Origin: Cyanophora paradoxa CCMP329
Lineage: Eukaryota > Plantae > Glaucophyta
Direction of reading: 5' to 3'
DNA length: 64,000 bases
Assembly (NCBI GenBank): GCA_004431415.1
Contig: QPMI01000601.1
Location: forward strand, 124,001 to 188,000
Both the position numbers and the translations under genes were made by a program. The notes under the pieces were generated by a model that did no database searches, was not told the DNA's origin, and saw only the letters and a list, made by a program, of their open reading frames with translations. Each line of letters opens with the position of its first letter. Within the stretch, counting starts at the first letter, position 1. This document shows, piece by piece, positions 30,959 to 64,000 of this stretch.

Positions 30959-33692
30959 CTACCCCTCGTCGTAGTCGAGCATGGAGGCGGGGTTGTAGCT
31001 GCTCGCCGGCCCCCCCGGCGCGCCGTAGGGCCCCCCCGGCAGCGGCAGCGCCGCCGCCCCCAGCACGGCCGCCGGGGCCGCGGGGGCCTTGGCGGGGTCC
31101 TCGCCGCCCCGAGGCCGTCGTCGTAGGCGTCGTAGTCGTCTCCGGGCGCCCCGTACGGCCCCACCGCCGCCGGTCCGGCCAACGCTGGGGGCGGCGGCGA
31201 CGGCGCCGCCGCCGCGGACGACGAGGAGGAGGAAGAGGCGGCCGGCGGGAGCGCCGGGGCCGCCTCGGACTCGTTCAGGAGTCCCCGCAGGCCCGCCCCG
31301 GGCTCGGCCCGCGGCCGCTTCGCCGGCCGCTCCCCGCACCCGAGGCCGAGGGCGAGGGCGCCGGGGGCGGCGCGGCGGACGCGGAGGAGACGCGCCTGGC
31401 CGGCGGGGCGCCGGGCCCTCCGCTTCCGCCCCGCCCCAGCTTCCCGAGCGCCTCGGCCCGAACCGCCTCGTACTCCTCTCGCACCTGGCCCCGGGGGGAT
31501 CAGAGGGGAGGGGGGGGGGATGAAAGCGGAGTGGGGTAGCTCGCTGCGGGCCTTGGCGTGGTGGGTGGCGAGCGTGGCGGCGACCTCGAGGAGCTGAGGG
31601 GGCCGCCTCGGGCGGGGCGGGGCGGGGCGGGGCGGGGCGGCGGACGGCGTCGCGGGAGACGTTGTCGGCCATGGAGCGCCGGATCTTCTCGATCACGCTC
31701 ACGTCGTTCGCCGTCGTCTGCCCCCGCCCAGCCTCAGCACGGGGGAGGGGGGAGGGCGCGGGGGCCGCGGGGGGCGGGAGGGCACCTTGTCGTCGCGGAT
31801 GCGGAGGTACTTCCACCCGCCCTTGTGCCAGTCCACGTCCCGCTCCCAGTCCCCGACCCTGCCGCCCCTAAGGACGGTACCGGGGCGGCGCGGGGCGGGG
31901 CGGGGGCGCGCGGCCGCACTCGCGGATGTTGACGCCCTCGCGGAGGGCGAAGGAGGGCCACTCGGCGTCGAAGACGCACTCCAGCACCGCCTTGCTCGCC
32001 AGCCGCGAGTCCGAGCGGAACCGCTCGAACTGGCCCCGCGCCCCCGCTCAGCAGGACGCCGGCGCGCCTCGGGGAGGGGGGACGCGCGGGCACCTGGTCG
32101 GGCGGCAGGTTGATGAACGCGAACCGGCACGGGCTCTGCGGCCGGCGCAGCTCGGGCGGAGAGGAGAGGCGAGGCGCGGGGACCGGGTCCAGGGGCGCGA
32201 AGCGCGCACCCCCCGGTTGGCGCAGCAGAGCATGAACCGCGGCTCCTTCTGCCCCGGGGGTCCCCTGCGGCAAGGCTGGGCTGGAGCGCGGAGAGACCGG
32301 AGGTGACGGCGTACCCCCAGATGGTCTCCAGCGTGAAATCGACCGTGTTCAACTCCGCCGGTTTCCACTTCAGCCTGGACGGGGCGCGGGGGCGCGGCGT
32401 GAGAGGAGCCGAGACGGCGTACCCCGCATCCCGCGCGGGGCGCGCACAGCGTGTTGTCCGTCCCGCAGAGGTACGGGGAGAAGACCTGCGGCCAGGGGCG
32501 TCGGCGCGCGCCGCCCACGGGGGTACGCCATCCCTTACAAAGACGAGGGGGTACCTTGGTGAAGATGATGCCGTCGTTGTGGTGCGGGAGGGTGGGTATG
32601 ATGTCGTCGAAGACCTGCCGGAGGTGCCGGACCTGCGCGGGGGGTACATCGAACGGGGCGGGGCCGGCGGAAGCGCAGGCGACCGGGCCGAGCGCACCTC
32701 GTACATCTCCTTGGCCACGATCCTGCGGGGCGCGGGCGGGCGGGCGGGCGGGCCCTCAGGCGGGAGGAGGGGCGCGCGGAAGGGGCCGGGGGCCGGGCGG
32801 GCGCACTTGATCTGCTCCTTCTCCTTGGAGGGCGCGCGTTCGCGCGGGGCGAGGATGTGGTTCTTGACGTGCTTCAGCCGCACGTACAGCGGGTCGTCCA
32901 TCACGCAGCGGCCCTGCAGCACCTGCCGGGCGAGAGGGGGGCGGGTCAGGGGGGCGCGGGGGGTGGCGGGATGGGGGGCGGGAGGGGACGGCGAGGGGCA
33001 CCATCATGTCGTAGATGTAGTAGCGCCACTCGTCGACCTGCGCCGCGCAGAGTCTGAGGGCGGCGAGCGGCGACGGGGCGGGGCGGGGCGCGCGCACGGA
33101 GCCGTCGGCGGACTTGTCGTACACGAGCTCGCCGTCCAGCAGCGTCTGGTCCAGCATGCCCCCGTCCCGGCTCGGGAACGAGCACTGCAAGGGGTAGAAC
33201 TTGAACTCGCGGCAGATCTGCGGGGCGCGTCGAAGTCAGCCCGGCGACGCGCCACGCGGCGCTTCGGCAGGTCGTTCGGGGCAGTGTGCGCACCAGGCAG
33301 GCGCCCCACTTGCAGATGAGGCACATGTAGCGCGTGCCGTCCGTCTTCTCGCACGCGAAGTACCGCTCCGTGAGCAGCGTCCCTGCTCCGAACGTCAGCG
33401 CCTGCGACTGCGGCCGATCCGCGGCGACGCTCACGCAGGTGCTTCGCCTCGAATGACACGGGCTGCGAGCCGGGGAAGAACGCCGGGCCCTGCGCCGCAC
33501 TGCGTGAGCGGGCGGTTCGGCGCGGCGGCGCTCGTTCATGCTAGCGGCAGGCGCGAAACCGACTGGCAGACGCGCGCTCACCTTCTCCCAGCCCATCATC
33601 TTCACGACCATCTGCTTAAGCTGAGGAATGGCATCCGGCTTGATGCCCTTCGTCGAAACGGGGGGCGGCGGGAGGTCGTGGAGCACGCCCAT
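30959..33692 (-). CDS. mRNA capping enzyme, guanylyltransferase (stand-alone), multi-exon
   Basis: FPGSQPVSF, motif I EKTDGTRY (KxDG), TLLDGELV, YYIYD, HNDGIIF, LKWKPAELNTVDF, and OB-fold W.YLRIRDDKTTAN. Confidence 0.92.
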
Positions 33693-34011
33693 GCTTGCGC
33701 TCGCCGCCCACGCCAAGCTGCGGTGCGCTCACGATCACCCTGTCGGTGTCGCAATCAATCCTGCTGGCGCGTCCGGGAAGGAAGCGCGTTCGCTGCGCCG
33801 AAACCGAAACGGGGTATGGCGGTTGGGCTACTTGGCAACAAAACCGCCAACGGCACAGGTTTCGGAAAATGCGCGGCGAAGGCGCCTGCGCGAGCGGGAA
33901 GGCGCGTTGGATTGACGAGCAGGTGCGGACACCACAGGGCAACGCCTGGTTCCCGTAGCTAACGCCCCGCCGCCCCGGCAGGAGTTCGCCGGACGAGGAG
34001 CCGCCCGCGAG

Positions 34012-49591: not shown

Positions 49592-49614
49592 ACCAGTGGA
49601 CCAATTAGCTATTG

Positions 49615-50037: not shown

Positions 50038-50275
50038 GATACGATTAGGGCTGGGTCCAGTGAGATCAGTGGAGGGTCGAGGGTCTCACTCCACTCACTG
50101 AGTGAGGATTTTGGCTCACTCGTACAAAGCAAAATGTATGGGGCGAGTGAGCCGGACCTCAGCCCGCGCCGCGCGGGGGGGTATCTGGCGCCATAAAATC
50201 ACGACCCAGGCGCCCCACCTAACGATTTGGGGGTACTTTTGAGTCAGATCTACATGCATATGCGTGTAGCGTAGC

Positions 50276-50563
50276 ACATGACATATGCGCATTACACCCA
50301 AATTTTAGCGCCTTTTATTTACGACATTCAGTAACAACTTTACGATTCCCGACAATCGGAAAATATCACCACCCAATAAACCCATTTAATCGAGAGATTC
50401 CCGATGAAACCTACAACAATCGAGAGATTCCCGACAATTCACCATCGGACAATCGATGAAATACCCATTTAATCGATTGAATCCATAAAAAACAACAACC
50501 ACTAAACCATTCACAGTTACACCCGTTACACTTCCACATCTCCGATTGATTCACATTACACCC
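50276..50563 (+). repeat. Left terminal inverted repeat of PLV (288 bp)
   Basis: Base-by-base reverse complement of 62841-63128. Starts ACATGACATATGCG. Internal AATCGAGAGATTCCCGA repeats. Confidence 0.97.
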
Positions 50564-50564
50564 A

Positions 50565-50888
50565 TCACATTCGCATAAATTGCATCCAAGTAGCAGGATT
50601 AGCAATACTTACGTCTGATTCGGAAGACATACCTTTTTGGTAATTATAACAGAATTCACAAAGTAGTCCCTGAGACATTGGTTTGAGTTTTTCAGTATCT
50701 CCACAAATCATACAACAGTTTCGGGTTCCCATTCGTTCATACATAGCATTTGCTTTTGCCTGTTGTGAATGTGTTAATTTCAATTCGCCGACGTTTTCAT
50801 TTACCATAGAAACAACCGGACGTCCACTTTTAGCGCCGACGTATTCAGTCATATTACGATGTCGTTCACTTGCTTTTCTCTTACCCAT
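50565..50888 (-). CDS. Small PLV protein with CxxC..CxxC zinc finger (107 aa)
   Basis: CCMICGD...LCEFCY. Upstream CAAAATTTGAC motif on the minus strand. Confidence 0.75.
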   Translation of the reverse strand: MGKRKASERHRNMTEYVGAKSGRPVVSMVNENVGELKLTHSQQAKANAMYERMGTRNCCMICGDTEKLKPMSQGLLCEFCYNYQKGMSSESDVSIANPATWMQFMRM

Positions 50889-50942
50889 CGTTATTACTAC
50901 TTCTCAGATTCCTTTTAAACTTTGTCAAATTTTGCCCCGATG

Positions 50943-50954
50943 CAAAAAATGACG
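50943..50954 (+). promoter_or_regulatory. Putative viral early promoter motif CAAAAAATGACG (also at 51498, 57100, 57616; variant at 50924-50934 on minus strand)
   Basis: The motif lies 26-92 nt upstream of each non-structural gene, usually followed by an ACTTAAA box. Confidence 0.65.
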
Positions 50955-50994
50955 CTTTAAAACTTAAAACTTTACAACGATACACTTGTAATCA

Positions 50995-51507
50995 ATGGCG
51001 ACCAAACGAACCGCGGACATTCTGTGTTATAACATGGACTTCTTACCTAATTCAAATAGTGTTTACGCTGATTTTTTCGGAGATAATCTAACTGATGAAT
51101 CTATTTCGATTATATTTGGTGTATACAAGTGTTTGCATCAATTCCAAGGTGTAACATCAGATATGCTACACAAATGCTTCCTTACCAATAGACTCGATGA
51201 ATTGATTCATAAAAGAAATAAAAATAATCCATCGGGCTATTTCAAGAAGTTGAAAGAAAAAGGAATTATTATAGGAAAAACTTGTTTTTCAGAGCAGCAA
51301 GACATACCTAAATTCGAAATACTTGATGACAGTTATTGTATTAATTGTGGGCATGCAGATTATCTAACAGAAAATCACCCACGATTCACAGCGCCACCTG
51401 ATTGTTATGTTTGTTGTGAATTTCTTTGTAAAAAGTGCGCATACTACGACAAACAAAAGTATTCATTCGTGCATTTCAAATGTAGCCCAAAAATGGGCAA
51501 AAAATGA
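50995..51507 (+). CDS. PLV protein with C-terminal Cys-rich zinc finger (170 aa)
   Basis: CINCGH...CYVCCEFLCKKC...HFKC. Confidence 0.75.
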   Translation: MATKRTADILCYNMDFLPNSNSVYADFFGDNLTDESISIIFGVYKCLHQFQGVTSDMLHKCFLTNRLDELIHKRNKNNPSGYFKKLKEKGIIIGKTCFSEQQDIPKFEILDDSYCINCGHADYLTENHPRFTAPPDCYVCCEFLCKKCAYYDKQKYSFVHFKCSPKMGKK

Positions 51508-51535
51508 TGTCCCAAAAAAATAACAATTAAAAACA

Positions 51536-52011
51536 ATGGATTACTACGGAGTTTTTTTTTTTTTTTTTTTGGTGAATTACCGGCCACAGTCTCTAGACAC
51601 CAGCACTGCGGGGTTTACATGTTGGATATTGAAAATCCGGAATTACATAAAGATCTTCTCGAAAACAACGGGGCTGAATGGGATCCGGACACAAAATTAT
51701 GGTTTGTCGAAGACGAAAATAACGAACTTTTAAAACAATTCCGTGTAAAACATCCGGGTGAATTCGACCAAGATTACGTTAAACAATTCCACCGCCAGTA
51801 TTTCGTGGCTGATATCAAAGCAAGACTACCGGAGATTGCGGCAAAGCGTATATTTACTCAGTCATCATTACGCAAATATATTAAAAAACAAGGCGCTACA
51901 TACGATCCTCAGTATCGTTTATGGTATGTTACTGATCCTGAAAGTGAGATATGCAAGATCTTTAAGATGTTCACACTCGAACAGGTAGAAGATCTGAGAA
52001 GACCAAATTAA
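51536..52011 (+). CDS. Tandem DUF5710-like protein; original start 51536 frameshifted by a retro-insert, in-frame ATG at 51619 retains 130 aa
   Basis: Two GAxWDPxxKLW(F/Y)V-type repeats (GAEWDPDTKLWFV, GATYDPQYRLWYV). Removing the 62-bp insert gives MDYYGVY-MLDIENPEL. Confidence 0.75.
51555..51612 (-). mobile_element. Extremely 5'-truncated poly(A)-tailed retro-insertion
   Basis: Poly-T plus GGTGAATTACCGGCCACAGTCTCTAGACACCAGCACTGCGGG, flanked by GTTT duplication (51551-54, 51613-16). Homologous to host copies at 49621 and 49859. Confidence 0.8.
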
Positions 52012-52760
52012 ACCGTAATCGTCGTGGGTTCATTACTAATTCTTATCGATTCTCTCTTTTTTATCGCTCGTCTCTTAACAAACTTGCGAAACGCTTTCAT
52101 GTCATCATCTGTTATTATTGCACGGTCTGTGTATACTTTGATGTCATAACCTTGTAACCCAGTTATAACGGTCTGATAATTGTAACCCCAAAGTCTATGT
52201 AGTTCTTTGTAAGTCTTCTTGTCCAATCCACCGTTATATTCATCGAATGCACAGTTAAACTCTTTCTCATTTCCTAAAATGTTAAAGAATACCACAAATT
52301 CCACATTACGACGAATGGTAGTAGAAATAGAACATATACGTTGGACATTGAAAATAACGGTTATACCATAATGTCTTCCGCTCGTTACCAGTTTGGATAA
52401 CACAGCCGAATTATGCATATCCAAATTAGAACCTATCATGTCATCTAAAATTATTACCAAACTATTACGCTTCTCATTGTTTTCGATTCGTTTCTTTTGC
52501 ATACTAATTAGTTTCACTACCACATTATCATCCCATTCCTCATAGATGTTACCAGGATGCGTTATATCTTTGAATTGACCGGTAAACGCAGTGGAACTAA
52601 ATACTACAATCTGATCGATCTTATCGCGCAGTTCATAAAGTAGATATTTACAATACGTTGTCTTACCAGAATTGGAGCGCCCGGCAAGCAAAAAACGCGA
52701 AGGTAATTTAGCAGTTTTAACCGGGTCGAATTCGGGAATATCATTTAAATCTATATCCAT
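52008..52760 (-). CDS. A32-like (FtsK/HerA) genome packaging ATPase
   Basis: Walker A GRSNSGKT, Walker B LVIILDD, GRHYGITVIFNVQ (arginine finger/Q motif), IRRN. Confidence 0.93.
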   Translation of the reverse strand: MDIDLNDIPEFDPVKTAKLPSRFLLAGRSNSGKTTYCKYLLYELRDKIDQIVVFSSTAFTGQFKDITHPGNIYEEWDDNVVVKLISMQKKRIENNEKRNSLVIILDDMIGSNLDMHNSAVLSKLVTSGRHYGITVIFNVQRICSISTTIRRNVEFVVFFNILGNEKEFNCAFDEYNGGLDKKTYKELHRLWGYNYQTVITGLQGYDIKVYTDRAIITDDDMKAFRKFVKRRAIKKRESIRISNEPTTITV

Positions 52761-52888
52761 TACTGTGTGTCCGTTACAGTAATAAGATAAAAAACAAAAT
52801 CATGCGCTAACCTATACGCAATTTGCAGGCTTCCTACTTTAAAGAAAGAAAAAAGAATCGTCAGACAAGCCGACTCGGCGGCGCCCTT

Positions 52889-55109
52889 TTAAAAGTTGGA
52901 AACTTTCAGTGTCGAAATGTTATAGCCATTGAGAACCATGACATTGTGACGGAGCGCGTAAATATCCACCTGAACCGGCGCCTCATCGGTGCAACCAGAA
53001 ACTACAAGATCCATGTAAGAACTTGAAGAATTGAAGAAGTCTTGATAACCCATGACCGAATTATGGAGAGAATCCTTACCGCTCTTGCTTAGGACAACAC
53101 CATAAACACATCCATCCTCAAAACCAAGATCAGAATTGCCCACAGTGCATCCCTTGTAGTGAGACGGGATATGGTTTACAGCAGACAGGAAACCGCCAAT
53201 AGGTTTGTTTGAGATTTCAAGCGATCGGTTGTTATGGAAAATTTGGAACTGTTCAATTTTCACATTGGAATAGTAACCAGAAAGAGTCGAATGTGTGTAT
53301 TTATCAAGCTCATTGGTTTCACGAACAGTCATAAGAATTGAATGAACCAGACCGGAAACACTCGCAAGTGTAACCTCGACATTTTGCCCATCATCCGCCG
53401 CTTTAAGCGCTCGGGTCTTCTTGTGGATCACTTCCGTAATCGGGATGCGAATACCTCCTTGTTCATTCGCCGTCTTTAAGAGGTTCTCAGCTTCCGCAGA
53501 AGCAATATTAACGAATTGACAGATTAGCGCGCAATCACCCATAGTGACATTTCCACCAGCAGGAACCAAAACTACTGAATTCTCCGACGCTCACGGCAGC
53601 TGAACGGCAGGCGCAGATGTGCGTGCTACGGGGGCTGCCCCCGGCGGGCCTCACCGATATGATTCGCGAGACCGTCACGGACGCCAAGAAAGCTGCCCAG
53701 GTCGTGCGCAAGCTGACGACGGCCATAGGCGAGCAGGCCCATAAAACGTGGGCCGCCAGATGCCAGGCGTACGCGGAGTGGGAGAAGGCGTGCGGGATCA
53801 CGAAGGTCATGAAAGAACGTCGCGCCAAGGCGAAGCGCACTGAGGCGCGCGGGCGCGAGGCCGACGCGCCGCCTGACGATACGGCTGGCAACGCTCGCAG
53901 GAAGCGCGCGGATCCGGAGCCCCGGCAGCGGGAACGCTGCAGGGAGTGCGGTGCCCTCGAGTCCCGCCACCAAGGCGGGGAAACCCTAGCCCTCTCACAC
54001 CTGAGCTGCCCGCCAGACGACTACGGCTGGGTCCGGGCTTCAGCGGCCATGCAAGTATACGACCATACGAACAGGTATGCTTGGGGCGTGGGCACACAGA
54101 GGGCGCGCCCGCGCTAGAGGGAGACACTGGGGGATTGCGGTCTGGGGGCGGGGCCGGAGGACGCAACACCAACAAATGGAGGCGGCGGAGGCGACGGCAG
54201 GAGGCGGCCAGTAGCCCAATCTACTGGGGCTGGCGAGGAGCCTGGCACACGGCGCGGCGAGGCCCTTGGGCAGCGCTGGCGGCGGACATACCATGATTGG
54301 GAGTCTTTTGTAGAGATAGGACCTCGTAGCCGGGAGTTTAGGTTGGTTTAGAAATCGATACAGCTAGCTTCCACATCATTAGTATTAGTTAGAAACCTCC
54401 TTAGCTAGATATCTAGACACGAAACCTTCAAACCTTTCGTTCATTTTGTACTTTCTAAAGCACAGCATACGACGGTCCTCGATAGTATCTAGTCGGAGAG
54501 ATTTATTGGGCGATGTGAAACTCATTGTAGTTGTGTTGTGTGCTAATGCAAGAGATTTTCCAAAACTACTGAATTCTCGCGAAAATCTACCTCGATAGTG
54601 GGCATGTCCGCAAGAACGCAAAGGGGGAAATATGCATCATCCCAGAATTGGGCAGGAATCTTAATGATATATTCCGTAGATTCGTCAGTGCTAAGGCGAC
54701 TAATTTCACGGAAATATCCAAGAGAAGCGCGCATAGTAGCCATGGTTGCTGTGTCATTGTCTACCAGAGCATTAACAGTGATCCAATCGCCAGGGATGAT
54801 ATACTTAAACCCACCGTGGACAAAACGAACCTCTTTAATGTAAGAAGCGCCACCATTGGGAAGAGTGCAAGCAACACCACCACCGGTAGTAACCTTAAAG
54901 TAAAGTGAAACGCCACTTAGTAGTTGCTTGCGTGGTAGATCAAAATAAGCGGTCGTTTTGAAACCGAAAGTATTACCACGTGGGCGAACCTGTTCAAGGA
55001 ACGGCTTATATTTGGGGTTGGTTCCGATTTGGAGACCGGGAGATAGATAAATTTGATCCGATCCGGGAGTAACGAGGAGTTCTTTAAGGGTCGTTCCAGT
55101 AAGCGCCAT
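52889..55109 (-). pseudogene. Major capsid protein (double jelly-roll, ~408 aa reconstructed) interrupted by a LINE fragment
   Basis: ORF 55109-54543 and ORF 53569-52889 join in frame (...DFRENSVVL|VPAGGNV...) once the insert and one 19-bp TSD copy are removed. Beta-rich, lies between ATPase and penton, PLV-MCP-like motifs (FDLPR, FPL). Confidence 0.8.
53585..54559 (+). mobile_element. 5'-truncated non-LTR retrotransposon (975 bp) with 19-bp TSD
   Basis: TSD CCAAAACTACTGAATTCTC at 53566-53584 and 54560-54578. GC-rich insert. ORF remnant TWAARC..AEWEKACGIT resembles the C-terminus of the element at 8.3-11.4 kb. Confidence 0.88.
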
Positions 55110-55161
55110 GTCTTATGTTTAAAATACGAAAAGAAATTTTTAAATTACATTATTAAACAGA

Positions 55162-56067
55162 ATGACGCGTTACTATCTTAATATTGATTCCCGGGATCGG
55201 GATGATGGAACCCCTACAAACTATTCTTATAAACTTCCCCATGCAATCCAAAATGTTAAAGCATGCCGTGTTACCAATTTCGAAATGTTTAATAACATTT
55301 ACAATCTCAGCGAAAACGGAGCGCTTGTAACATCCACACTCGATGGACAAGGAGTAACCAAAACGAAAAACAACGTGATTTCGAAAGGGACTTACACAGC
55401 GGATAGTTTGGTGAATTATCTAAATGCTCTTCTGATATCTCAGGTCTACGGTGCAGCAGGGACTACATACACCCGTCATTTCAATGTGTCTTATGATCCA
55501 ATAACAATGAAACTAAGGATTATTGGTGAAGTAGCATTTACCATACGTTTCGGTAGCATGATTTTAGCCAATTTCCTCGGTTTCCCGGATCCATCACTAA
55601 ATGGCTCGGCGGGTGTAGGTTATCCATCTACTCCTCTCGATTCACCACAGCAAGTAGGTGCTTATACTTATAATCACTATCTCGACAGTGTCATACCGCT
55701 CGACCTTCTGTTTAATTCTTACATCCTTCTACATGTCGATCCACTCAAAGGTAATTACGTAAGCAAGAATACCAGCGACGATAAAGCGTTAGCTAAAATT
55801 GAAATTGACCAGACGGTAGGTAGTCTCCTAAAATACGATTCTACCAATAACTCTATGATCATCCATGAGCAAAACGGATTAGTGGAAGTTGAGACGCTTA
55901 AAGTGCGTTTGACGTATTGGAATGGTAACGAAACGGACATTACCACGGATTGGTCAATGACTCTCGAACTGATCACCGAAGATGAAAAGGATCTTACGAA
56001 AGCAGCATTGAAAAACGTTATAAGGGATTTGGAAAATGTCTATTTACCGTTTGGTCGTAATATGTAA
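55162..56067 (+). CDS. Minor capsid protein (penton), 301 aa
   Basis: YLNIDSRDR...NYSYKL...IQNVK...NNIYNL and C-terminal LKVRLT..G....DWSMTLEL are typical of PLV pentons. Confidence 0.85.
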   Translation: MTRYYLNIDSRDRDDGTPTNYSYKLPHAIQNVKACRVTNFEMFNNIYNLSENGALVTSTLDGQGVTKTKNNVISKGTYTADSLVNYLNALLISQVYGAAGTTYTRHFNVSYDPITMKLRIIGEVAFTIRFGSMILANFLGFPDPSLNGSAGVGYPSTPLDSPQQVGAYTYNHYLDSVIPLDLLFNSYILLHVDPLKGNYVSKNTSDDKALAKIEIDQTVGSLLKYDSTNNSMIIHEQNGLVEVETLKVRLTYWNGNETDITTDWSMTLELITEDEKDLTKAALKNVIRDLENVYLPFGRNM

Positions 56068-56099
56068 TTTTGCGTTATATTTTTGTCTTGTTATTTCAA

Positions 56100-56876
56100 A
56101 TGGCTCGTAAGACACAACCCAAGAGCGGCTCGCAAGCGAGCCTTGGCTCGCGCCTTTTCTTAGCGAAACCCGTCGAACAAGCGGAACCGGAACGGAAGCA
56201 TTACAAGAAATCGAAAGGAACCGCAGCATACGGAACCGCTGATATCGAAAAGAATATTAATAATACGATTAATTCCAGTGCTGTGGCGCCAGTAGACGAC
56301 ATTAACGATGGTAACGCCTTAGTTGAGCAAGTGCCGCTAAACCGTATGCCGGGTGCAAAGCGTGGGATTAAGAAAGGACAATTTAAGAGCGCGACAATCG
56401 ATAAGGTCGATAAAAAGTCGACTCTTCTTAAACTCCTCGATGGTGGCGAGCGTCTGTATTCCACATATTCGGAAAAAGACCACCGTAACCGTTACTTTAT
56501 CAGAGCAACTACCGGTGGACTGAAAACGATCACATACAAACACGCTAAAAGTCTCATTGAGGGAATCGCCGATGAGACGCAGAAAGAGAAGAAGATAACG
56601 GAGCAACCGATAACCAAAGAGAAGGTAGACAAGAAACCCGATGTTACGTTTGATGTCCTTCCCGATCCAATCAAAGAGGAGAAACACACACCGACGGAAT
56701 TAATCGCTAAGACGATCGATTACCAAGAATCCAATAAAACGGATTTGCCGGTGTTAAATAAATCAATCTTGCGGGTTGCTACATCGCAATCTGACCCGCT
56801 TAACTCCATTCCCAATGCGGCGCCGATGCTTTCCGGATTCGCTAAATTGGGTCTCCGTCCGGGTTACAGGCGTTAA
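56100..56876 (+). CDS. Lys-rich PLV hypothetical protein (258 aa), possible virion core protein
   Basis: Intact ORF from ATG 56100, directly after the penton gene, basic composition. Confidence 0.7.
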   Translation: MARKTQPKSGSQASLGSRLFLAKPVEQAEPERKHYKKSKGTAAYGTADIEKNINNTINSSAVAPVDDINDGNALVEQVPLNRMPGAKRGIKKGQFKSATIDKVDKKSTLLKLLDGGERLYSTYSEKDHRNRYFIRATTGGLKTITYKHAKSLIEGIADETQKEKKITEQPITKEKVDKKPDVTFDVLPDPIKEEKHTPTELIAKTIDYQESNKTDLPVLNKSILRVATSQSDPLNSIPNAAPMLSGFAKLGLRPGYRR

Positions 56877-57203
56877 GCATCATTCTTACGTTAAAATTTT
56901 CTTTTCAAAGAATAGCGTTAAACATCCATCTCCGAATTTTAGCGCTCACGTTTACTTATTTTTATAAGTGGCGTTGTAGAGAAGTTGTGATATCCATGTA
57001 TCACGCTTTTTAATCACCTGTTCTACGGGGTTCATTCGTAGAATCGAGGAAGCGAAGACTTTCGGCTTATTTTTCCGGCATCTTCTTATTATCGATGCGC
57101 AAAAAATGACGGCGTTTTAAAAAACTGATCGACATGTTATATACACGATAAGAAAAGGACTTAAAGATTTCTTGCTATATATCAGAAGAGGAACAGCAAG
57201 AGA

Positions 57204-57458
57204 ATGCCGCTAAGCGAATCTCAGAAACGCGCGATTTATCGCTACCGCAGCACAGAAAAGGGTATGTTAGCGCTTGCGCGATTCAATGAAAAGCGCAATG
57301 TTAAGTGGAGTGAATTGTATAATAACGATGACGCATTTAGACAGAAACACATAGCAACGTCATGCAAGGCGCAGTATGTAAATAACACGATTCTATACAT
57401 TAAGTATCTATTCGACGTCCCGCGAACTAATCGGGGTCGCCCATCAATTCATTGTTAA
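57204..57458 (+). CDS. Small basic putative DNA-binding protein (84 aa)
   Basis: MPLSESQKRAIYRYR N-terminus of a type common in PLV/virophage small proteins. Preceded by the shared promoter motif. Confidence 0.7.
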   Translation: MPLSESQKRAIYRYRSTEKGMLALARFNEKRNVKWSELYNNDDAFRQKHIATSCKAQYVNNTILYIKYLFDVPRTNRGRPSIHC

Positions 57459-57688
57459 TCCTTTTTTCCCGGCGCGATCGCTGAGGAAGACAGGCGCAAC
57501 CGCGCTTAAAACAATACACTGTTTGAGTTATTTTTAAGACCATCGAATGGTGGTCGACCCTTTTGTTATTTTTATTAAACCCTCAAAGCGGATTTTGTGG
57601 ATTTTGCGGTGTCGCCAAAAAATGACGCAATGTATGAAAAGCACTTAAAGAAATAAAATATAGTGTATATAATAAGAACGCCTATAAG

Positions 57689-60600
57689 ATGTTTTCATTT
57701 GCAACAGTGAAGAATATCATCGGATCTGTGGTAGAGTCCATTAGCAATCTACCCGGTATTCGCAGCATCCCGTTTATCGGTAATGCAATTAAGCGAATCG
57801 CTAATGATCGTTTCGAAAGAGTCGTAAAGGAACTCGAAGCAAGGAAGAGTGAGAAGAAGGAGAAGACTAAGGAGGAAATCCGCGAAGAGCGGAAGAAGCG
57901 CAAGCAGGAGAAGAAGGAGAAGCGCGCACTGAGAACGATTAAGAACATTCAGAAGCAAGAAGGGAAGAAGTTCAAGGGAAAGGTAAGGCGTCTCATTCGT
58001 CGTATTGAAGCAGAAAATGGCGAAACTGTTTCGGTTCATGTAAGATTCTATACACTTCCCGATGATATCGATAATCTACCACAGGGCTATGATGTTATCT
58101 TACACAAAGACACGCCTTACGTTGAGACACAGAAGAGCGGAAAGAGGGCATTAATTATGACTTGCCCGAAAGACGTATTGATTGCAAGACTTACCGAAGT
58201 CGAAGACGAATTTAATAACTTTCTTGCCGTTTGGTCGCTCGATACTATCGCCGCTTTCCTTCTTAATATCGCTGATCGTAACGCAAATAACAGGGATTAC
58301 AATTATGTGCGAATTTTCGCTTACCCACAACTCCGTGAGTCTCCTATTTCATATCCCGATGTTATGACAATTGAGGAAATTGTAGTAAGTGACAATACCA
58401 CTGTATACCCTCTGAATGAAAGAGCGCTTAGAGACGGAGAGGCGCCTAAGATCGTTTCGCGTTTCATCAAATATTCACTTAATGGTGGCGCAAAATCTGT
58501 ATTGGATCAGATTAAACCCGATGGGTCACTTATCATCAAGGATTGCTTAATAGAGGCGCTACATCAGGTCATTGTGAAATCTTTCGAATATGCCCACAGT
58601 ATCAGCAAATACAAGAAGGTTAAGTATTCGAAGGAATGGCTTTATGAGCAGATCAAAGGACACGCGCCTACTGACACATCCGATTGGGGGACGTCCTTTA
58701 ACGAAATACTACCATTCTTGCAAAAGTGGCGCATCCGCTTTATCGCAATCGGAAAAGACGACAAGGTTATACATTCTCTGTGTTACAAACCTACCCGGAC
58801 AAATTCACACCTTGTCCCGGCAAGCGTTTACGTTCAGATCTCTAACGATCACGTGTATGTGTTGAATAAAGACCTTAGTAAACTTGTGCGATCTTTCAAT
58901 GGAACAGCGGCGCGCGAAACAAAAGCGGTGGGTTCATCGTCGTTAAAATACAAGATCAAAACACAGTTTAACGATATCAGCTATCCGGCATACTCTGAGG
59001 AAGAAATAGTGGAGATTGTTAAACGTGAGAAGGAAAACGCAACCTCAAAAATCACGATCACTTACAGTAAACCGTTATTCGAATTGTTGGGAAGTTTCAG
59101 AAGAGCAAACCACGAAGTTAACGCGACTATTTCCGATGAAGGTATAGTTAGCTACATCCATTACAAGATCGAAGACAAAGATGTAGTTATACTACCGCCA
59201 GGCAATATGGTGAATATGGATGATGTCGACGTTAACCTTAGGGATGAAGAACACCGAAAACTCTTTAACGAAATGTCGCAGATGCTAAACCGTGCGCTCA
59301 TTAACAAACATGTTAAGAGCAAATACAACCCGGAGACATTCGCCGCATTCACGAAAGGACAACAGAGCGCATTAAATGGGTTTTTCGTGACTTCTAACGC
59401 TGAATTGCGGGAATTGTTTGAAGGTGTTATGTGTGGCGCGATCGATACGTATAAATTGGATATCTCCAAAGCATACACACATATCGTATCGAAACTCATC
59501 AAAAACTTCCCGGTTTTCAGCTCATTCGATCGATTCGAAAAGGTTGTGGTAACGTGTAGCGATGATATCGAAGCGGACGCCTTCTATTCAGTGAAAGTAA
59601 GAGCGAAACACTTTACGGTAAATCGTAAAGACCAATTGATTAACAACATGTCGCCATACAAACGTATCCTTGTAGACTCAAAATACAACCTTCTGTATGG
59701 TGGCGTGTTGAAAGAGTTCTACGATGACATCCGCGACGACGTGATTATAGAAGCAGTGGTAAGACCATACCGGGTTGTTAAAAACGTCACATTGCAGGCT
59801 TTCAAGCAGTTGTTTGCGTCTAACCTTTCGATCAAGGAAAAGAAGGATATCAGTAATCACAATATCGGGAAGTTTGGTAAGAAATCCCAGCAAAAAGTGC
59901 AAACAACGATATTCTTTAACAAGAACGACGCGCTTAACTTTGTCCGAGAGAACGGCGGTAAACTGAGATCGCTAAATTTCGATTCAAAGAAGCCGAAGCG
60001 GACGACTGTAAGGAATGAGGCAAAGACGGAGACACCGATGTTATGGTATGTAAACCAGCTCGGAGAAGAGAAGACGCTTATAGATGGTTTCCTACCTATC
60101 CAGTGTCAGATTTACAGTATCATGCGTGGGGTCATGTATAAACTGTCTAAGGATCTATTGGCTAATGGTGTTGGAGTTCTACGCATCAGAACCGATGAGT
60201 TTCTTATAGACAAGCCATACCCATTTGAGCCGTTTGACCGCGACCTTTTCGAAAACACCGGAAAGTATGACGTGAAACCGTTTAATGTTACTCCGATTAT
60301 ATCACAGGAGTCAAAGAAGAAGCGGAATAATGCTAATGGGTGGATCACATTCGACAGACTGAGACAACGCGACGAGAGGTTTATTACGGTCGAGAAGGTG
60401 AATCATAAGGTGTTCAAGTTTAAGGATGAATACAACGTGGAAGCCATCGTGAATGCTATGGACGGAAAGGGTAACGTGATTATTCGCGGTGTCAAACCCG
60501 GGACAGGTAAGACCACGTTAGCGAAGGCGATGACACGGAAGTATGGTAAAAACTGTCTTTTCATTGCGCCGACTAACATTCGATGCAAGCAGCTACGCAT

Positions 60601-61786
60601 GGAATTGAAAAAGGAGTGGAGCGAAGTTGACATGGTCGATGTGAAGACTATCTACAAGTCACTACATCTGAATATCGACCCCGAGAAGATGAATGACAAC
60701 GTAGGTAAACAGGTTACCGATTTATCCAAGTATCAATGCTTTGTAATCGATGAGGTTTACCAGTTCCAGATTCGCGAATTGGAGGCGTTGAGAGACATTA
60801 TGACTATCCATTTTCCGGATAAGTTATACATCGTTACGGGTGACCCATTCCAGATTCCACCGATTCAATTTATCGATATCGACCATCGCGACTACTACAA
60901 CAAGATCTTTGACCGGTTGTTTAAGAATGAGGTTTACCTACAAGTCGGAAAGCGACACAAAGACCCCGAAGATCAGGTTAAAATAGATCAATTGAAACAT
61001 GATCTATTCGTTACAAAAATGCGTGTTCCGGAGGCAGCGGCGCGGTTGGGTCTTGCAGTTGTGAATGAAATGGAAAAAGGCGACATTTCCATAGTTCAAT
61101 CTAACCGCAAGTCCGCGCAAGTGAATAATGAAATGCACAGGATGCTTTACGGTGTTGACATGGTTTATAAGGAAGGCGTGCATTTGATTGCAAAGTATCA
61201 AATCACAACAAATGAGGGTATCATTTATCGCGGATTTGAATATGAAGTAATCAAATACGAACCCGAAAAGGTTCTTACGCTAAAAGACATCGACAGCGAA
61301 GAAATCTATAATGCGAAGCCCGAAGACATCAAATATTTCGCATTATCTCATGGTTTCACTTGTTACAGCATTCAGGGCGACACTATCAGAGATAAACGCG
61401 TAGTTGTCTATCAGTCGACCTCGCCATACATGACCGCTGAGAGTTTCTATGTTGCAGTGACGCGAACCGAAAGACTTTCTGACACTGTAATTTTCGTAGA
61501 TGAGGACGAGAGACGGAGAGTTGGTATGGAGAAGGCAGAGTTTGCCGTTAAAATCAGATCACACAAGGCAGAAGACAAGAAGTGTAACCGTGAGTTTGAC
61601 GCAGCAGATTACGTCGATTGGGAATGGAAGGGTTACCGCTTTGGTAAGCAGCATGGACGCTGTGGAAGGTGTGGCGATATTATGGATCCGGAAGATGCAA
61701 CAGTAGACCGTTACAACAACGCAATCGCCCACATTAAGCCGAACTGTTTCTTATCTCATAATAGGTGTAATTGTGCAGCGCAGTAA
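57689..61786 (+). CDS. Replication polyprotein: basic N-terminus, vOTU-like domain, derived protein-primed PolB, SF1 (Pif1/RecD-like) helicase, HNH-like finger (1365 aa)
   Basis: DCLIEAL...NDHVY. LDISKAY / KDISNHNIGKFGK / IRTDE. GTGKT, VIDE, GDPFQIPP, SIQGDT, YVAVTR. CGRCG..TVDR.NN..AH.K.NC..SH.RCN. Confidence 0.88.
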   Translation: MFSFATVKNIIGSVVESISNLPGIRSIPFIGNAIKRIANDRFERVVKELEARKSEKKEKTKEEIREERKKRKQEKKEKRALRTIKNIQKQEGKKFKGKVRRLIRRIEAENGETVSVHVRFYTLPDDIDNLPQGYDVILHKDTPYVETQKSGKRALIMTCPKDVLIARLTEVEDEFNNFLAVWSLDTIAAFLLNIADRNANNRDYNYVRIFAYPQLRESPISYPDVMTIEEIVVSDNTTVYPLNERALRDGEAPKIVSRFIKYSLNGGAKSVLDQIKPDGSLIIKDCLIEALHQVIVKSFEYAHSISKYKKVKYSKEWLYEQIKGHAPTDTSDWGTSFNEILPFLQKWRIRFIAIGKDDKVIHSLCYKPTRTNSHLVPASVYVQISNDHVYVLNKDLSKLVRSFNGTAARETKAVGSSSLKYKIKTQFNDISYPAYSEEEIVEIVKREKENATSKITITYSKPLFELLGSFRRANHEVNATISDEGIVSYIHYKIEDKDVVILPPGNMVNMDDVDVNLRDEEHRKLFNEMSQMLNRALINKHVKSKYNPETFAAFTKGQQSALNGFFVTSNAELRELFEGVMCGAIDTYKLDISKAYTHIVSKLIKNFPVFSSFDRFEKVVVTCSDDIEADAFYSVKVRAKHFTVNRKDQLINNMSPYKRILVDSKYNLLYGGVLKEFYDDIRDDVIIEAVVRPYRVVKNVTLQAFKQLFASNLSIKEKKDISNHNIGKFGKKSQQKVQTTIFFNKNDALNFVRENGGKLRSLNFDSKKPKRTTVRNEAKTETPMLWYVNQLGEEKTLIDGFLPIQCQIYSIMRGVMYKLSKDLLANGVGVLRIRTDEFLIDKPYPFEPFDRDLFENTGKYDVKPFNVTPIISQESKKKRNNANGWITFDRLRQRDERFITVEKVNHKVFKFKDEYNVEAIVNAMDGKGNVIIRGVKPGTGKTTLAKAMTRKYGKNCLFIAPTNIRCKQLRMELKKEWSEVDMVDVKTIYKSLHLNIDPEKMNDNVGKQVTDLSKYQCFVIDEVYQFQIRELEALRDIMTIHFPDKLYIVTGDPFQIPPIQFIDIDHRDYYNKIFDRLFKNEVYLQVGKRHKDPEDQVKIDQLKHDLFVTKMRVPEAAARLGLAVVNEMEKGDISIVQSNRKSAQVNNEMHRMLYGVDMVYKEGVHLIAKYQITTNEGIIYRGFEYEVIKYEPEKVLTLKDIDSEEIYNAKPEDIKYFALSHGFTCYSIQGDTIRDKRVVVYQSTSPYMTAESFYVAVTRTERLSDTVIFVDEDERRRVGMEKAEFAVKIRSHKAEDKKCNREFDAADYVDWEWKGYRFGKQHGRCGRCGDIMDPEDATVDRYNNAIAHIKPNCFLSHNRCNCAAQ

Positions 61787-62853
61787 TGGATAACATATTA
61801 TCTTACAAGAAATACCGCCAGAAGTTGATAAACGATAAAGTGACATTTGATGAAGCAGAATTAAAGAAACGTTTTATAAATTCCGAAGTGCATCAGATAT
61901 TCAAGAAACCAAAGAAACCAAAGACATTTCTAAGAATTGTTGCTATGCCTTATTCCTTTCAGGTGGACATAATGAATTTTAAAGGATATCAAACCGCGAA
62001 TAATGGGATTTACAAGATGATAAGTTTTATTGATATATTGAGTCGGAAGGCTTTTGTGTATCCGTTTAAGAAAAATGAAGAAATCCGTAATATTTTGAAT
62101 AAGTTTAAGGTTGAGGCAGGTAAGGTTAATGGATTGGCGGGAGATCATGAGTTTAGCAGTGCGATGTATAAAGAATGGTGTGATGCTAACGGTGTGAGAT
62201 TATATACAGATGTGGCGAAAGATGACCATGTAACCGTTGGAAATAAGTTAGGAATTATTGACAGATTCACACGGACATTTAAGCAATATTTGAGGAAGGC
62301 GATGACATCAAAGGGAACCACAAAATGGATAGATTTAATAGGTGAAGTTCTTTCGATTTACAATGGTTCACCTCATAGTTCCTTAAAAGATGATTCACCC
62401 AATGCAGTATTTGCAAGTGATCAGAAACAGCTTTTTATACATCTACGTGATGTTGTGCATAACAAGCATGTGCAAGAGAAGGAAAAGAAGGATACAGTAA
62501 AACCGGGTGATACTGTGCGAGTGTTGGAAGGTAAAAAAAGTGCGTTTGAGAAAGAAGGCGCGCGATTCAGTCAGAAGGTCTATAAAGTCGGAAGATCTGA
62601 CGGGAATAGGTTTAAGGTGTTGGAGGATATGGACGGAGACGAGAAGGAGGTAAAGAGGCGCTTTAAGAAGCAAGAGTTACAGAAGGTGAGCGTGAAAGAT
62701 GTAATTAAGATACCGTCGCAAAAACGAATAGAACGAGTAAAAAAGGTAAATGCTGTGAATCAGAAGATGAAGAAGGAAGGGATTAAACCGAATCGAAAAG
62801 TAACCGTGAGGAAGAAGTATAATTTAAGAAGTAGTGCAAAGGGTGTAATGTGA
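61786..62853 (+). CDS. Retroviral-like (rve) integrase with SH3-like C-terminal domain (355 aa from ATG 61786)
   Basis: FQVDIM, FIDILSRKAFVYP, GDHEF, GIIDRFTRTFK, W.DLI......YN..PHSSL..SP, VKPGDTVRV. ATG overlaps the upstream stop (TAATG). Confidence 0.93.
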   Translation: MDNILSYKKYRQKLINDKVTFDEAELKKRFINSEVHQIFKKPKKPKTFLRIVAMPYSFQVDIMNFKGYQTANNGIYKMISFIDILSRKAFVYPFKKNEEIRNILNKFKVEAGKVNGLAGDHEFSSAMYKEWCDANGVRLYTDVAKDDHVTVGNKLGIIDRFTRTFKQYLRKAMTSKGTTKWIDLIGEVLSIYNGSPHSSLKDDSPNAVFASDQKQLFIHLRDVVHNKHVQEKEKKDTVKPGDTVRVLEGKKSAFEKEGARFSQKVYKVGRSDGNRFKVLEDMDGDEKEVKRRFKKQELQKVSVKDVIKIPSQKRIERVKKVNAVNQKMKKEGIKPNRKVTVRKKYNLRSSAKGVM

Positions 62854-63128
62854 ATCAATCGGAGATGTGGAAGTGTAACGGGTGTAACTGTGAATGGTTT
62901 AGTGGTTGTTGTTTTTTATGGATTCAATCGATTAAATGGGTATTTCATCGATTGTCCGATGGTGAATTGTCGGGAATCTCTCGATTGTTGTAGGTTTCAT
63001 CGGGAATCTCTCGATTAAATGGGTTTATTGGGTGGTGATATTTTCCGATTGTCGGGAATCGTAAAGTTGTTACTGAATGTCGTAAATAAAAGGCGCTAAA
63101 ATTTGGGTGTAATGCGCATATGTCATGT
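62841..63128 (-). repeat. Right terminal inverted repeat of PLV (288 bp)
   Basis: Exact reverse complement of 50276-50563. Confidence 0.97.
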
Positions 63129-64000
63129 GTAGCGCTAGCAGCACCGCGCGCGATGCTGACCATGACCAATCTGAAATTCGAAACGACCTCTCAGAGTCTC
63201 GACATTTTAGAAGCCCGCGGAAACAGCTGGCAGTTACGGCGCGTAGCGCCTGAAAACACGGCGAAATCTGGGTCGTTTTAGGTCGTTTTTCGCGTATACG
63301 AAAACGTACCCCCTGCTCACTACAGTGACTGAGTGAGTGGGACGCAAAAAGCTCACTCACAAAGTGAGCCCGCGGACCTCACTGGGCGCAGCCCTAGATA
63401 CGATCAACATCTGACTCAGTGAGGGAATTCGAAGCACATGTCCATCACTAACAAGCGCAGGACAGAACTGATCATGAACAAGATAAATCACAGGAAGCAG
63501 ACAGGTAAGCGGAACAACAAGACGACGTCGACGTGCACGTGGAGGCTGAGGCGAAACTTTTGAAACAGGCCTAGGACGATGCGAATCGAAAGGGCAGAAT
63601 TCGAACTACGGCACGAGCGCGAGGAGGACACAGAAGACGGATCAGGCGGATCAAGAGCAGGCCAGGCCTAGATCAAAGGAATCACTAAAGCCGGTCGGGG
63701 TCGACGTCGAGGCGGGCAGTCACGTTGCACACTGAGTCGAACTGCAAACGACGGCGAACGCGAACGACGTCGACAGGTCGAATACGAGGACTAGCGCTGG
63801 AATGAATTCTATAGCTAGCTATAGCATCAACACGTGCACTACGATCAGAATCCGAACCAGACCGAACTAAACTACAAGACGGAGAACTCGGAACGCCGGC
63901 GCCGGCGTCGGCGGGATACCGTAGTACGACCAGCGAAGCAGAATTCGAAGATGAAGCCAGCTGCAGATCTAGATCATAGGCGGCAGCTCGCGATCGGTAC

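Follow-up and report, generated by a model that had tools for sequence, protein, structure and literature searches.

A putative early promoter box of giant-virus type precedes five genes of a polinton-like virus integrated in Cyanophora paradoxa

The window analysed here, a 64,000-nucleotide stretch of the Cyanophora paradoxa CCMP329 genome (contig QPMI01000601.1, positions 124,001 to 188,000 of the forward strand; coordinates below are those of the window), holds an integrated polinton-like virus (PLV) with ten genes. Five of these (g1, g2, g3, ORF57204 and a gene for a helicase fusion) are preceded by a common box, AAAAWWTGA(C/T), which, to judge from its sequence, probably serves a co-infecting giant virus of the Imitervirales type as an early promoter. 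The other five, encoding a packaging ATPase, the major capsid protein (MCP), a probable penton, ORF56100 and an integrase, lack the box. Because the box matches giant-virus early promoters, the element would be expected, with somewhat better than even confidence, to rely on a giant virus for the expression of the five box-bearing genes.

Results

An early-type box precedes five of ten genes

The five copies of the box are as follows.

50924..50934, minus strand: CAAAATTTGAC; its AAAAWWTGA starts 45 nt before the g1 ATG
50943..50954, plus strand: CAAAAAATGACG, 51 nt before the g2 ATG, forming a head-to-head pair with that of g1
51498..51509, plus strand: CAAAAAATGATG (CAAAAAATGAT(G)), 37 nt before the g3 ATG; its TGA doubles as the stop codon of g2
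57100..57111, plus strand: CAAAAAATGACG, 103 nt before the ORF57204 ATG
57616..57627, plus strand: CAAAAAATGACG, 72 nt before the helicase-fusion ATG

All five matches to AAAAWWTGA in the element lie 37-103 nt upstream of a gene on the same strand (5/5 sense; three at -37 to -51, the others at -72 and -103), and the host DNA at 1-50274 has none. Enrichment was assessed in the ten upstream regions, 120 nt each, against region-wise dinucleotide shuffles. An earlier note, made from the sequence alone, had proposed the box as an early-gene signal, a proposal that depended on enrichment over an AT-rich background, and this was borne out: AAAAWWTGA occurs in five of the ten upstream regions (shuffle mean 0.27), a number reached by none of 3000 shuffles, and with g3 left out it still occurs in four of nine (0/3000). 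As a safeguard against post-hoc bias, the longest shared word was also sought with no motif set beforehand. The longest word common to three of the ten regions was CAAAAAATGACG, of 12 nt (best of 1000 shuffles, 10 nt), and the longest common to four was CAAAAAATGA, of 10 nt (best of 1000 shuffles, 9 nt); shared-word tests that tolerate mismatches were not clearly significant, the observed value being attained by 2, 42 and 5 of 60 shuffles. Across the whole element the count is unremarkable (five against a mean of 2.4, with at least five in 20 of 200 shuffles), and it is the placement of the matches that stands out.

As expected of an early promoter, AAAAWWTGA is absent before the morphogenesis genes, those for the MCP, penton and ATPase (0/3). 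The upstream regions of the MCP, penton and ORF56100 are equally AT-rich (30-33% GC), yet box-free. The positions that the earlier note gave for the boxes (50943, 57100, 57616, 51498 and, on the minus strand, 50934-50924) and for the ACTTAAA sites described below are all correct, and so is its statement that the MCP, penton, ATPase and ORF56100 lack the box; a looser AAATTTGA, however, lies 113 nt before the penton gene, within the MCP coding sequence. Its description of the box as standing before all non-structural genes was too broad: the integrase (61786) has no copy, which leaves five of six, and the label 'non-structural' is an assumption for g1, g2, g3 and ORF57204, to which no function is assigned. 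Four of the five boxes hold an ATG that opens an open reading frame (ORF) of 3-8 codons ending in TAA; the box on the minus strand has no ATG.

The box resembles early promoters of the Imitervirales

The putative early promoter of AaV is the octamer AAAAATGA (PMC5917014), and the early octamer of mimivirus, CroV and PgV is AAAATTGA (PMC5294985). The AaV octamer, an AAAAWTGA form of the early-promoter core WWWWWTGW, occurs in four of the ten upstream regions of the element (0/3000 shuffles). The exact mimivirus octamer AAAATTGA was found in none of the ten, nor was either of the chlorovirus words AATGACA and ATGACAA, which would be expected at -60 to -90; ARNTTAANA, in 3/10 regions, was not enriched (300/3000 shuffles). 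Thus, of the two giant-virus signals that had been likened to the box, the Imitervirales-type one stands, through the AaV octamer in 4/10 regions, and the chlorovirus one, with AATGACA in 0/10, does not. The likeness to AaV extends to the absence of the box before morphogenesis genes and to the distance of three boxes, at -37 to -51; it fails in the sequence that follows, a T-rich tail in AaV but CG here, and in the two boxes at -72 and -103, promoters of this kind lying about 30-60 nt before the ATG.

A scan of viral contigs for head-to-head pairs like that of g1 and g2 gave 120 loci, with nine giant-virus bins among the 80 listed. From these a giant-virus control of eight GVMAG-labelled loci was formed, seed sites being left out and L233 dropped because it overlaps L232; the phage control comprised 11 isolate-derived loci, the near-duplicate L281 having been dropped. 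In the giant-virus loci AAAAWWTGA precedes 24 of 96 ORFs, 23 times at -33 to -55 (against 4 ORFs in antisense and, in shuffles, a mean of 3.4 and a maximum of 7), numbers that show the use of such variants and not their frequency among giant viruses, since the loci were fetched with a pattern derived from this very motif; in the phage loci it precedes 3 of 152. The same variants stand before giant-virus genes, with CAAAAAATGATG before a capping enzyme gene (L266), CAAAATTTGAC before a ribonucleotide reductase gene (L253) and AAAAAATGAC before a TFIIB gene (L223), and the boxes of these loci are often head-to-head, like the g1/g2 pair. Of four such records, three encode RPB1; a search for RPB2 in two records was negative. 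One bin, GVMAG-M-3300020192-26, is classed in the Imitervirales (PMC13524828), and the pattern occurs in it 1528 times, as compared with 194 occurrences of the reversed control; another giant-virus bin has a weak excess (64 against 44).

A probable second, separate signal

The ACTTAAA motif and its longer form ACTTAAAG stand before three of the box-bearing genes.

50962..50968, plus strand: ACTTAAA, 33 nt before the g2 ATG
57159..57166, plus strand: ACTTAAAG, 45 nt before the ORF57204 ATG, with TATATA at 57176
57643..57650, plus strand: ACTTAAAG, 46 nt before the helicase-fusion ATG, with TATATA at 57666

The earlier note had joined box and ACTTAAA into one motif. A fixed arrangement of the two is not what the sites suggest: ACTTAAA follows the box by 19, 59 and 27 nt and tracks the ATG instead (-33, -45 and -46). 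In a scan with fixed spacing none of 19 matches lay upstream of a called ORF, and the two-part motif was therefore rejected; CAAAAAATGACG followed by TTAAA gave only scattered single matches. A fourth ACTTAAA, at 54803, lies inside the MCP gene, and plain TTTAAA also occurs before the MCP, penton and ATPase genes. ACTTAAAG itself occurs twice in the element, and in both cases TATATA follows and an ATG lies about 45 nt downstream (1/3000 shuffles), and the interval 57153-57192, which holds the copy of ORF57204, is conserved in sister copies. In distant relatives it precedes 4 of 68 other genes (0.1 expected), and in 11 giant-virus loci selected for ACTTAAAG it precedes 5 of 101 ORFs outside the seed sites (0.4 expected, maximum 2); the looser YTTAAAG, at 10 of 101 ORFs in those loci (shuffle maximum 13), is not clearly enriched. 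In the first giant-virus set ACTTAAAG precedes none of 96 ORFs, TTAAAG before the pol gene of distant relatives (3/10) is not significant (126/1000 shuffles), and a literature search found nothing relevant on TTAAAGA as a giant-virus promoter. ACTTAAAG is probably a second promoter element, real but separate from the box and weaker than it; a role in a middle stage of expression would be a guess.

Other short sequences of the element may also bear on transcription. TCTTRTTA, a candidate late element with five matches in the element, is found at 52787 (minus strand), 56086 (plus) and 57084 (plus), shortly before the starts of the ATPase gene and ORF56100 and before the early box of ORF57204. 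Possible transcript-end signals are a 7-bp hairpin at 57021-57043, conserved in sister copies, and TTATTTTT, present four times on the plus strand (56956, 57067, 57528 and 57566) downstream of ORF56100 and ORF57204; the TTATTTTT sites resemble the 3' motif of pacmanvirus. A search of the element for long 3' hairpins in the style of Mimivirus found no perfect stem above 9 bp.

A sister subtype keeps the putative divergent promoter; distant relatives do not conserve the strict box

The two boxes of g1 and g2 lie within an island that is better conserved than the genes on either side.

50884..50956: divergent promoter island, 73 nt, spanning both g1/g2 boxes

In four of four DNA runs of the same organism, a sister subtype of the element carries this island at 80% likeness or more, with the flanking genes unaligned; its junctions run from 50565 to 50884 and from 50956 to 52009 (4/4 runs).

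Distant relatives were represented by 83 loci retrieved through the integrase or the ATPase, with integrases 29-41% identical to that of the element. The strict box precedes none of their 10 helicase/pol genes and none of 19 integrase genes, and 4 of 68 other genes, where 1.8 are expected (24/300 shuffles). AAAAWWTG lies at -53 to -55 before pol in 3 of the 10 cases, which belong to one clade (82/1000 shuffles). Since the strict box is not conserved among these relatives, the promoters appear to be lineage-specific, as they are in EMALE types (PMC8547959).

Side observations were made among these contigs. A clade of lake PLVs carries, about 54 nt upstream of pol, a composite AAAAAWTG(A/G)-(C/T/G)TTAAA in which one box adjoins the other (L133 at 5297 and 6045, L165 at 107, L175 at 861). 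L122 and L123, PLV-like contigs that both encode a helicase fusion and an rve integrase, are filed in the giant-virus bin GVMAG-M-3300023179-2, through either mis-binning or co-occurrence.

The element and its genes

The element is an AT-rich island (about 41% GC, insertions excluded) in GC-rich, intron-dense eukaryotic DNA (about 72% GC in the host at 8-48 kb), and it is bounded as PLVs are, by terminal inverted repeats (TIRs) and a target-site duplication.

50276..63128: integrated PLV, whole element, ten genes, 12.85 kb
50276..50563: left TIR, 288 bp, 100% identical to the right TIR
62841..63128: right TIR, 288 bp
50271-50275 and 63129-63133: target-site duplication GTAGC, 5 bp
50565..50888, minus strand: g1, 107 aa, Cys-rich, with no family match
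50995..51507, plus strand: g2, 170 aa, no assigned function
51536..52011, plus strand: g3, DUF5710 in its downstream part, insertion near its start
52008..52760, minus strand: A32-type packaging ATPase, 250 aa, no early box
52889..55109, minus strand: MCP gene in two pieces (about 52889-53566 and 54579-55109), no early box
55162..56067, plus strand: probable penton (minor capsid protein), 301 aa, weak match, no AAAAWWTGA
56100..56876, plus strand: ORF56100, 258 aa, no assigned function, no early box
57204..57458, plus strand: ORF57204, 84 aa, basic, no assigned function
57689..61786, plus strand: helicase fusion, 1365 aa, SF1 helicase at about 920-1080
61786..62853, plus strand: rve-type integrase, 355 aa, no early box

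The ATPase matches Pox_A32 (E 3.4e-14), with 3283 relatives, as befits a PLV; as a single query it found no close relative among viral contigs, a five-sequence ATPase alignment found one distant locus there, and the phage collection gave no match. The N-terminal piece of the MCP scores 0.97 with clusters of Capsid_N (PF16903, NCLDV-type), which make up 21 of its 30 matches, at a recognition value under the threshold of the tool; on this likeness we take the interrupted gene to encode the double jelly-roll MCP of a PLV. No Pfam or PHROG match was found for the MCP, and none of 679 candidates was a homolog of its N-terminal piece. The penton assignment comes from a weak match to PDB 6ncl chain a6 (E 0.037), the Atlas matches being unnamed viral clusters. 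The N-terminal 96 aa of g2 are 35% identical to the product of an ORF adjoining an integrase gene in another locus (L192).

Upstream of its helicase the fusion protein has PolB-like motif remnants, in which, by eye in a six-sequence alignment, a conserved Asp, GxF and a TD whose first Asp is lost can be made out; a single-sequence fold of this region has a pLDDT of only 31.5. The C-terminus is weakly endonuclease-VII-like, and the helicase-fusion alignment retrieved 17 generic SF1 helicases from the viral contigs. The integrase has 121 homologs, many with PF00665, and its D61 and D120 are invariant; a direct Pfam scan gave no rve match. Its ATG overlaps the stop codon of the helicase fusion as TAATG (61784-61788), where in 16 relatives the gap between the two genes ranges from -23 to 1021 nt. 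Neither a protease nor DNA_pol_B_2 was found among the 12 and 10 proteins scanned, a very divergent protease being possible in the unassigned ORFs; the scans thus show neither the maturation protease nor the intact protein-primed PolB that mark a Polinton sensu stricto or a Mavirus-type virophage.

Two insertions interrupt genes of this copy.

53585..54559: insertion in the MCP gene, 975 bp, 61% GC, likely a truncated retroelement, with 19-bp direct repeats at 53566 and 54560
51552..51611, minus strand: insertion in g3, about 60 bp, one end formed by a long A/T run; likely the 3' end of a retroelement

The former matches a portion of a 3.3-kb contig from one of the putative RNA runs and is absent from some sister copies in at least two of four runs; relatives of the latter lie in the host flank at 49612 and 49851. 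With its MCP interrupted, this copy would need sister copies for particle formation. The TIRs are 100% identical and the remaining ORFs open, so that the integration looks recent.

Sister copies in putative RNA runs

Contigs from sister copies were collected from runs whose RNA status is a guess, so that they may be DNA; word depth in them cannot rank genes. In all four such runs of 2024, parts of the ATPase gene are matched by contigs about 93% alike, and parts of the MCP and penton genes, along with two short non-coding islands near ORF57204, by other contigs, at word depths of up to several thousand; near-identical contigs cover the integrase at a depth of about 10. The very deep intervals are 52204-52321, 54486-54555, 55116-55190, 57009-57043 and 57153-57192 (4/4 runs). 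g2 and most of the helicase fusion are uncovered, a gap that was counted neither for nor against any reading. Four runs of the same organism from 2019-2020 hold almost none of the words of the element. The high-depth sister sequences of 2024 could mark an active PLV subtype.

Discussion

A model of early expression

On the giant-virus reading, the early transcription factor and RNA polymerase of that virus would recognise the box, and transcription would start about 19-25 nt after the first A, a distance taken from the spacing in IIV-6 (PMC5294985). With such a start the ATG within the box and its ORF of 3-8 codons would lie outside the mRNA. The helicase fusion and the four small proteins would be the first products, and the capsid and packaging module would follow later, from other signals. 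Reinitiation at stop-start overlaps occurs in other eukaryotic viruses; at TAATG it may allow the integrase to be translated from the helicase-fusion mRNA, and this coupling would put the box-free integrase under the upstream promoter.

Comparison with known systems

A close parallel is PgVV-14T (Gezel-14T), a PLV virophage of Phaeocystis globosa virus, in which a giant-virus early box likewise precedes five genes, among them those for its polymerase, a replication gene, and its recombinase, and in which it is the early and not the late promoter of the helper that is used (10.1101/2022.07.28.501842). The two differ in toolkit (TVpol/SF3 helicase and a box-bearing tyrosine recombinase in PgVV-14T; an SF1-helicase fusion and a box-free rve integrase here), in core (AAAATTGA there; AAAAATGA/AAATTTGA here) and in that PgVV-14T was isolated as particles with its helper, whereas the present element is not known to have a helper. 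Transpovirons offer further cases of giant-virus-dependent TIR elements: pltv of pacmanvirus has AAAATTGA before its helicase gene (PMC11788076), and the megavirus transpoviron has an early box before only one gene (PMC11464507), but these are episomal and, unlike this PLV, have no capsid genes (PMC11788076, PMC11464507).

The promoter motif of Mavirus-type elements is TCTA, the late motif of CroV, and their virophage capsid module includes a protease; the box described here is of early type. Endogenous Mavirus/EMALE virophages are, like this element, multi-copy, rve-integrated and invaded by retroelements, and their helper was inferred from promoter motifs (PMC8547959); in Halocafeteria, too, inferences from promoters and invasion by retroelements have been described (10.64898/2026.07.28.741278). 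By its ten-gene content the element fits what is given for Tlr1 and S1H-type PLVs (PMC5499653). Tlr1 combines an MCP, a penton, an ATPase and an rve integrase with an inactivated PolB that is fused to an SF1 helicase, and it has no protease (PMC5499653); the probable penton and the PolB-like remnants of the element may correspond. The helicase fusion is shared with TsV-S1 and TsV-N1, which are described as autonomous (10.1101/2025.10.09.676808) and are likened to the element here by gene content, not by phylogeny. A literature search found nothing relevant on the nuclear location or promoters of TsV-N1. The toolkit of Tlr1 and the TsV viruses, an SF1-helicase fusion with an rve integrase, is so far tied to autonomous or unexplained lifestyles. 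In Tetraselmis, integrated PLVs are induced by a giant virus (10.1101/2025.10.09.676808). The word 'promoter' is absent from the available portion of a paper on cryptophyte PLVs (PMC12220804), and the literature search found no description that could be tied to this element, with bioRxiv supplements, a possible site of promoter tables, outside the search.

Who reads the box?

The proposal of the earlier note, an early regulon read by a co-infecting giant virus, remains our best guess on the grounds of promoter likeness; its scope has narrowed, since the integrase is box-free and the box is not conserved in distant relatives. The defensive role that the note added would be conjecture, and the MCP and g3 of this copy are interrupted. 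Several further observations weigh against reading by a giant virus. The boxes at -72 and -103 lie beyond the range seen in the giant-virus control, and that control was itself selected with the motif. The box of g3 overlaps the g2 stop codon, which supplies its TGA, and this copy is not fully independent for that reason. The island of the sister subtype is known by likeness in alignment, its boxes not having been read as letters. Autonomous TsV-N1 and TsV-S1 have the same S1H replication toolkit (10.1101/2025.10.09.676808). Lastly, if the cultures behind the deep ATPase contigs were free of virus, the sister copies were transcribed with no helper, and this would favour the host polymerase as the reader of the box.

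That alternative, in which the box is an early promoter for host RNA polymerase II in the nucleus, with a host or element factor, the PLV is autonomous or self-activating, and the likeness to giant-virus promoters reflects shared ancestry, is possible, if on the unlikely side. Early transcription of iridoviruses takes place in the nucleus and is carried out by host RNA polymerase II. The polymerase promoter of one of them, IIV-6, contains AAAATTGA, and chloroviruses, which have no RNA polymerase of their own, nevertheless use two signals, an early AATGACA box and, at -15 to -45, ARNTTAANA (PMC5294985); it is these chlorovirus signals that are missing (AATGACA/ATGACAA, 0/10) or not enriched (ARNTTAANA) in the element. 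ATPase and capsid sequences of sister copies at high word depth in four of four putative RNA runs would fit a host polymerase, and so would TGACG, present in three boxes, which we take to be a bZIP half-site. As the core of the box, a bZIP site was rejected because two of the five copies lack TGACG, whereas all five have AAAAWWTGA. The box, moreover, never occurs in the 50-kb host flank, and its variation (AAAAAATGA, AAAATTTGA) is that of giant viruses that encode an RNA polymerase.

It is improbable that the boxes are relics of a past helper-dependent life, in a family that now spreads or decays in the host genome with no use of them. The two interrupted genes, MCP and g3, and the lack of the strict box in distant relatives would suit such a history, but the identical TIRs and the other, open ORFs look recent, three boxes are identical over 12 nt, and the sister subtype preserves the promoter island better than the genes. 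Least credible, to the point of being very improbable, is that the boxes are no promoters but by-products of AT-rich spacers, of start-codon context (AAAAAATG) or of stop codons, possibly as tiny upstream ORFs. The ATG and short ORF in four of five boxes, the TGA that is a real stop codon and an element-wide count within chance (20/200 shuffles) are what it would lead one to expect; the box with no ATG on the minus strand is not, nor are the structural-gene upstream regions, as AT-rich (30-33% GC for MCP, penton and ORF56100) but box-free, or a degree of sharing never reached by region-wise dinucleotide shuffles with g3 in or out.

Reading by a giant virus can be set in a wider scenario, which we regard as speculative and doubtful as a whole: a multi-copy endogenous PLV family with a Tlr1/TsV-type toolkit would be wired to giant-virus early transcription through a portable divergent island around which genes are swapped, would share the ACTTAAAG-TATATA signal with some giant viruses and obtain its integrase by a stop-start overlap, and its strongly transcribed sister copies would betray a hidden or endogenous giant virus.

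Other features of the window

Positions 1-1326 of the window are the terminal part of a further AT-rich element. Its direct and inverted repeats are nested and include a 181-bp pair and a 28-bp inverted pair (1044-1071/1299-1326); it ends in ATGTGT and may be a viral or transposon terminus. Two host genes on the minus strand, at 22300-24700 and 31500-34000, are cut by numerous very short introns rich in GC, some of which seem to use GC donors. One of the two encodes an mRNA capping enzyme and the other, to judge by a motif, presumably an FO-synthase/CofH-like radical SAM protein.

Implications

The concept of a virus parasitising the early promoters of a giant virus is already published, and the gain would be another case and no new principle. 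If the box is what it appears to be, early-promoter parasitism extends past PgVV-14T to rve-integrating PLVs with an SF1-helicase fusion. Reading of the box by a giant virus would also predict an undescribed virus of the Imitervirales type for this host, together with the promoter variant that it uses. With its split into box-bearing and box-free genes and its many sister copies, the host may be used to ask whether endogenous PLVs are mostly autonomous or triggered by a helper.

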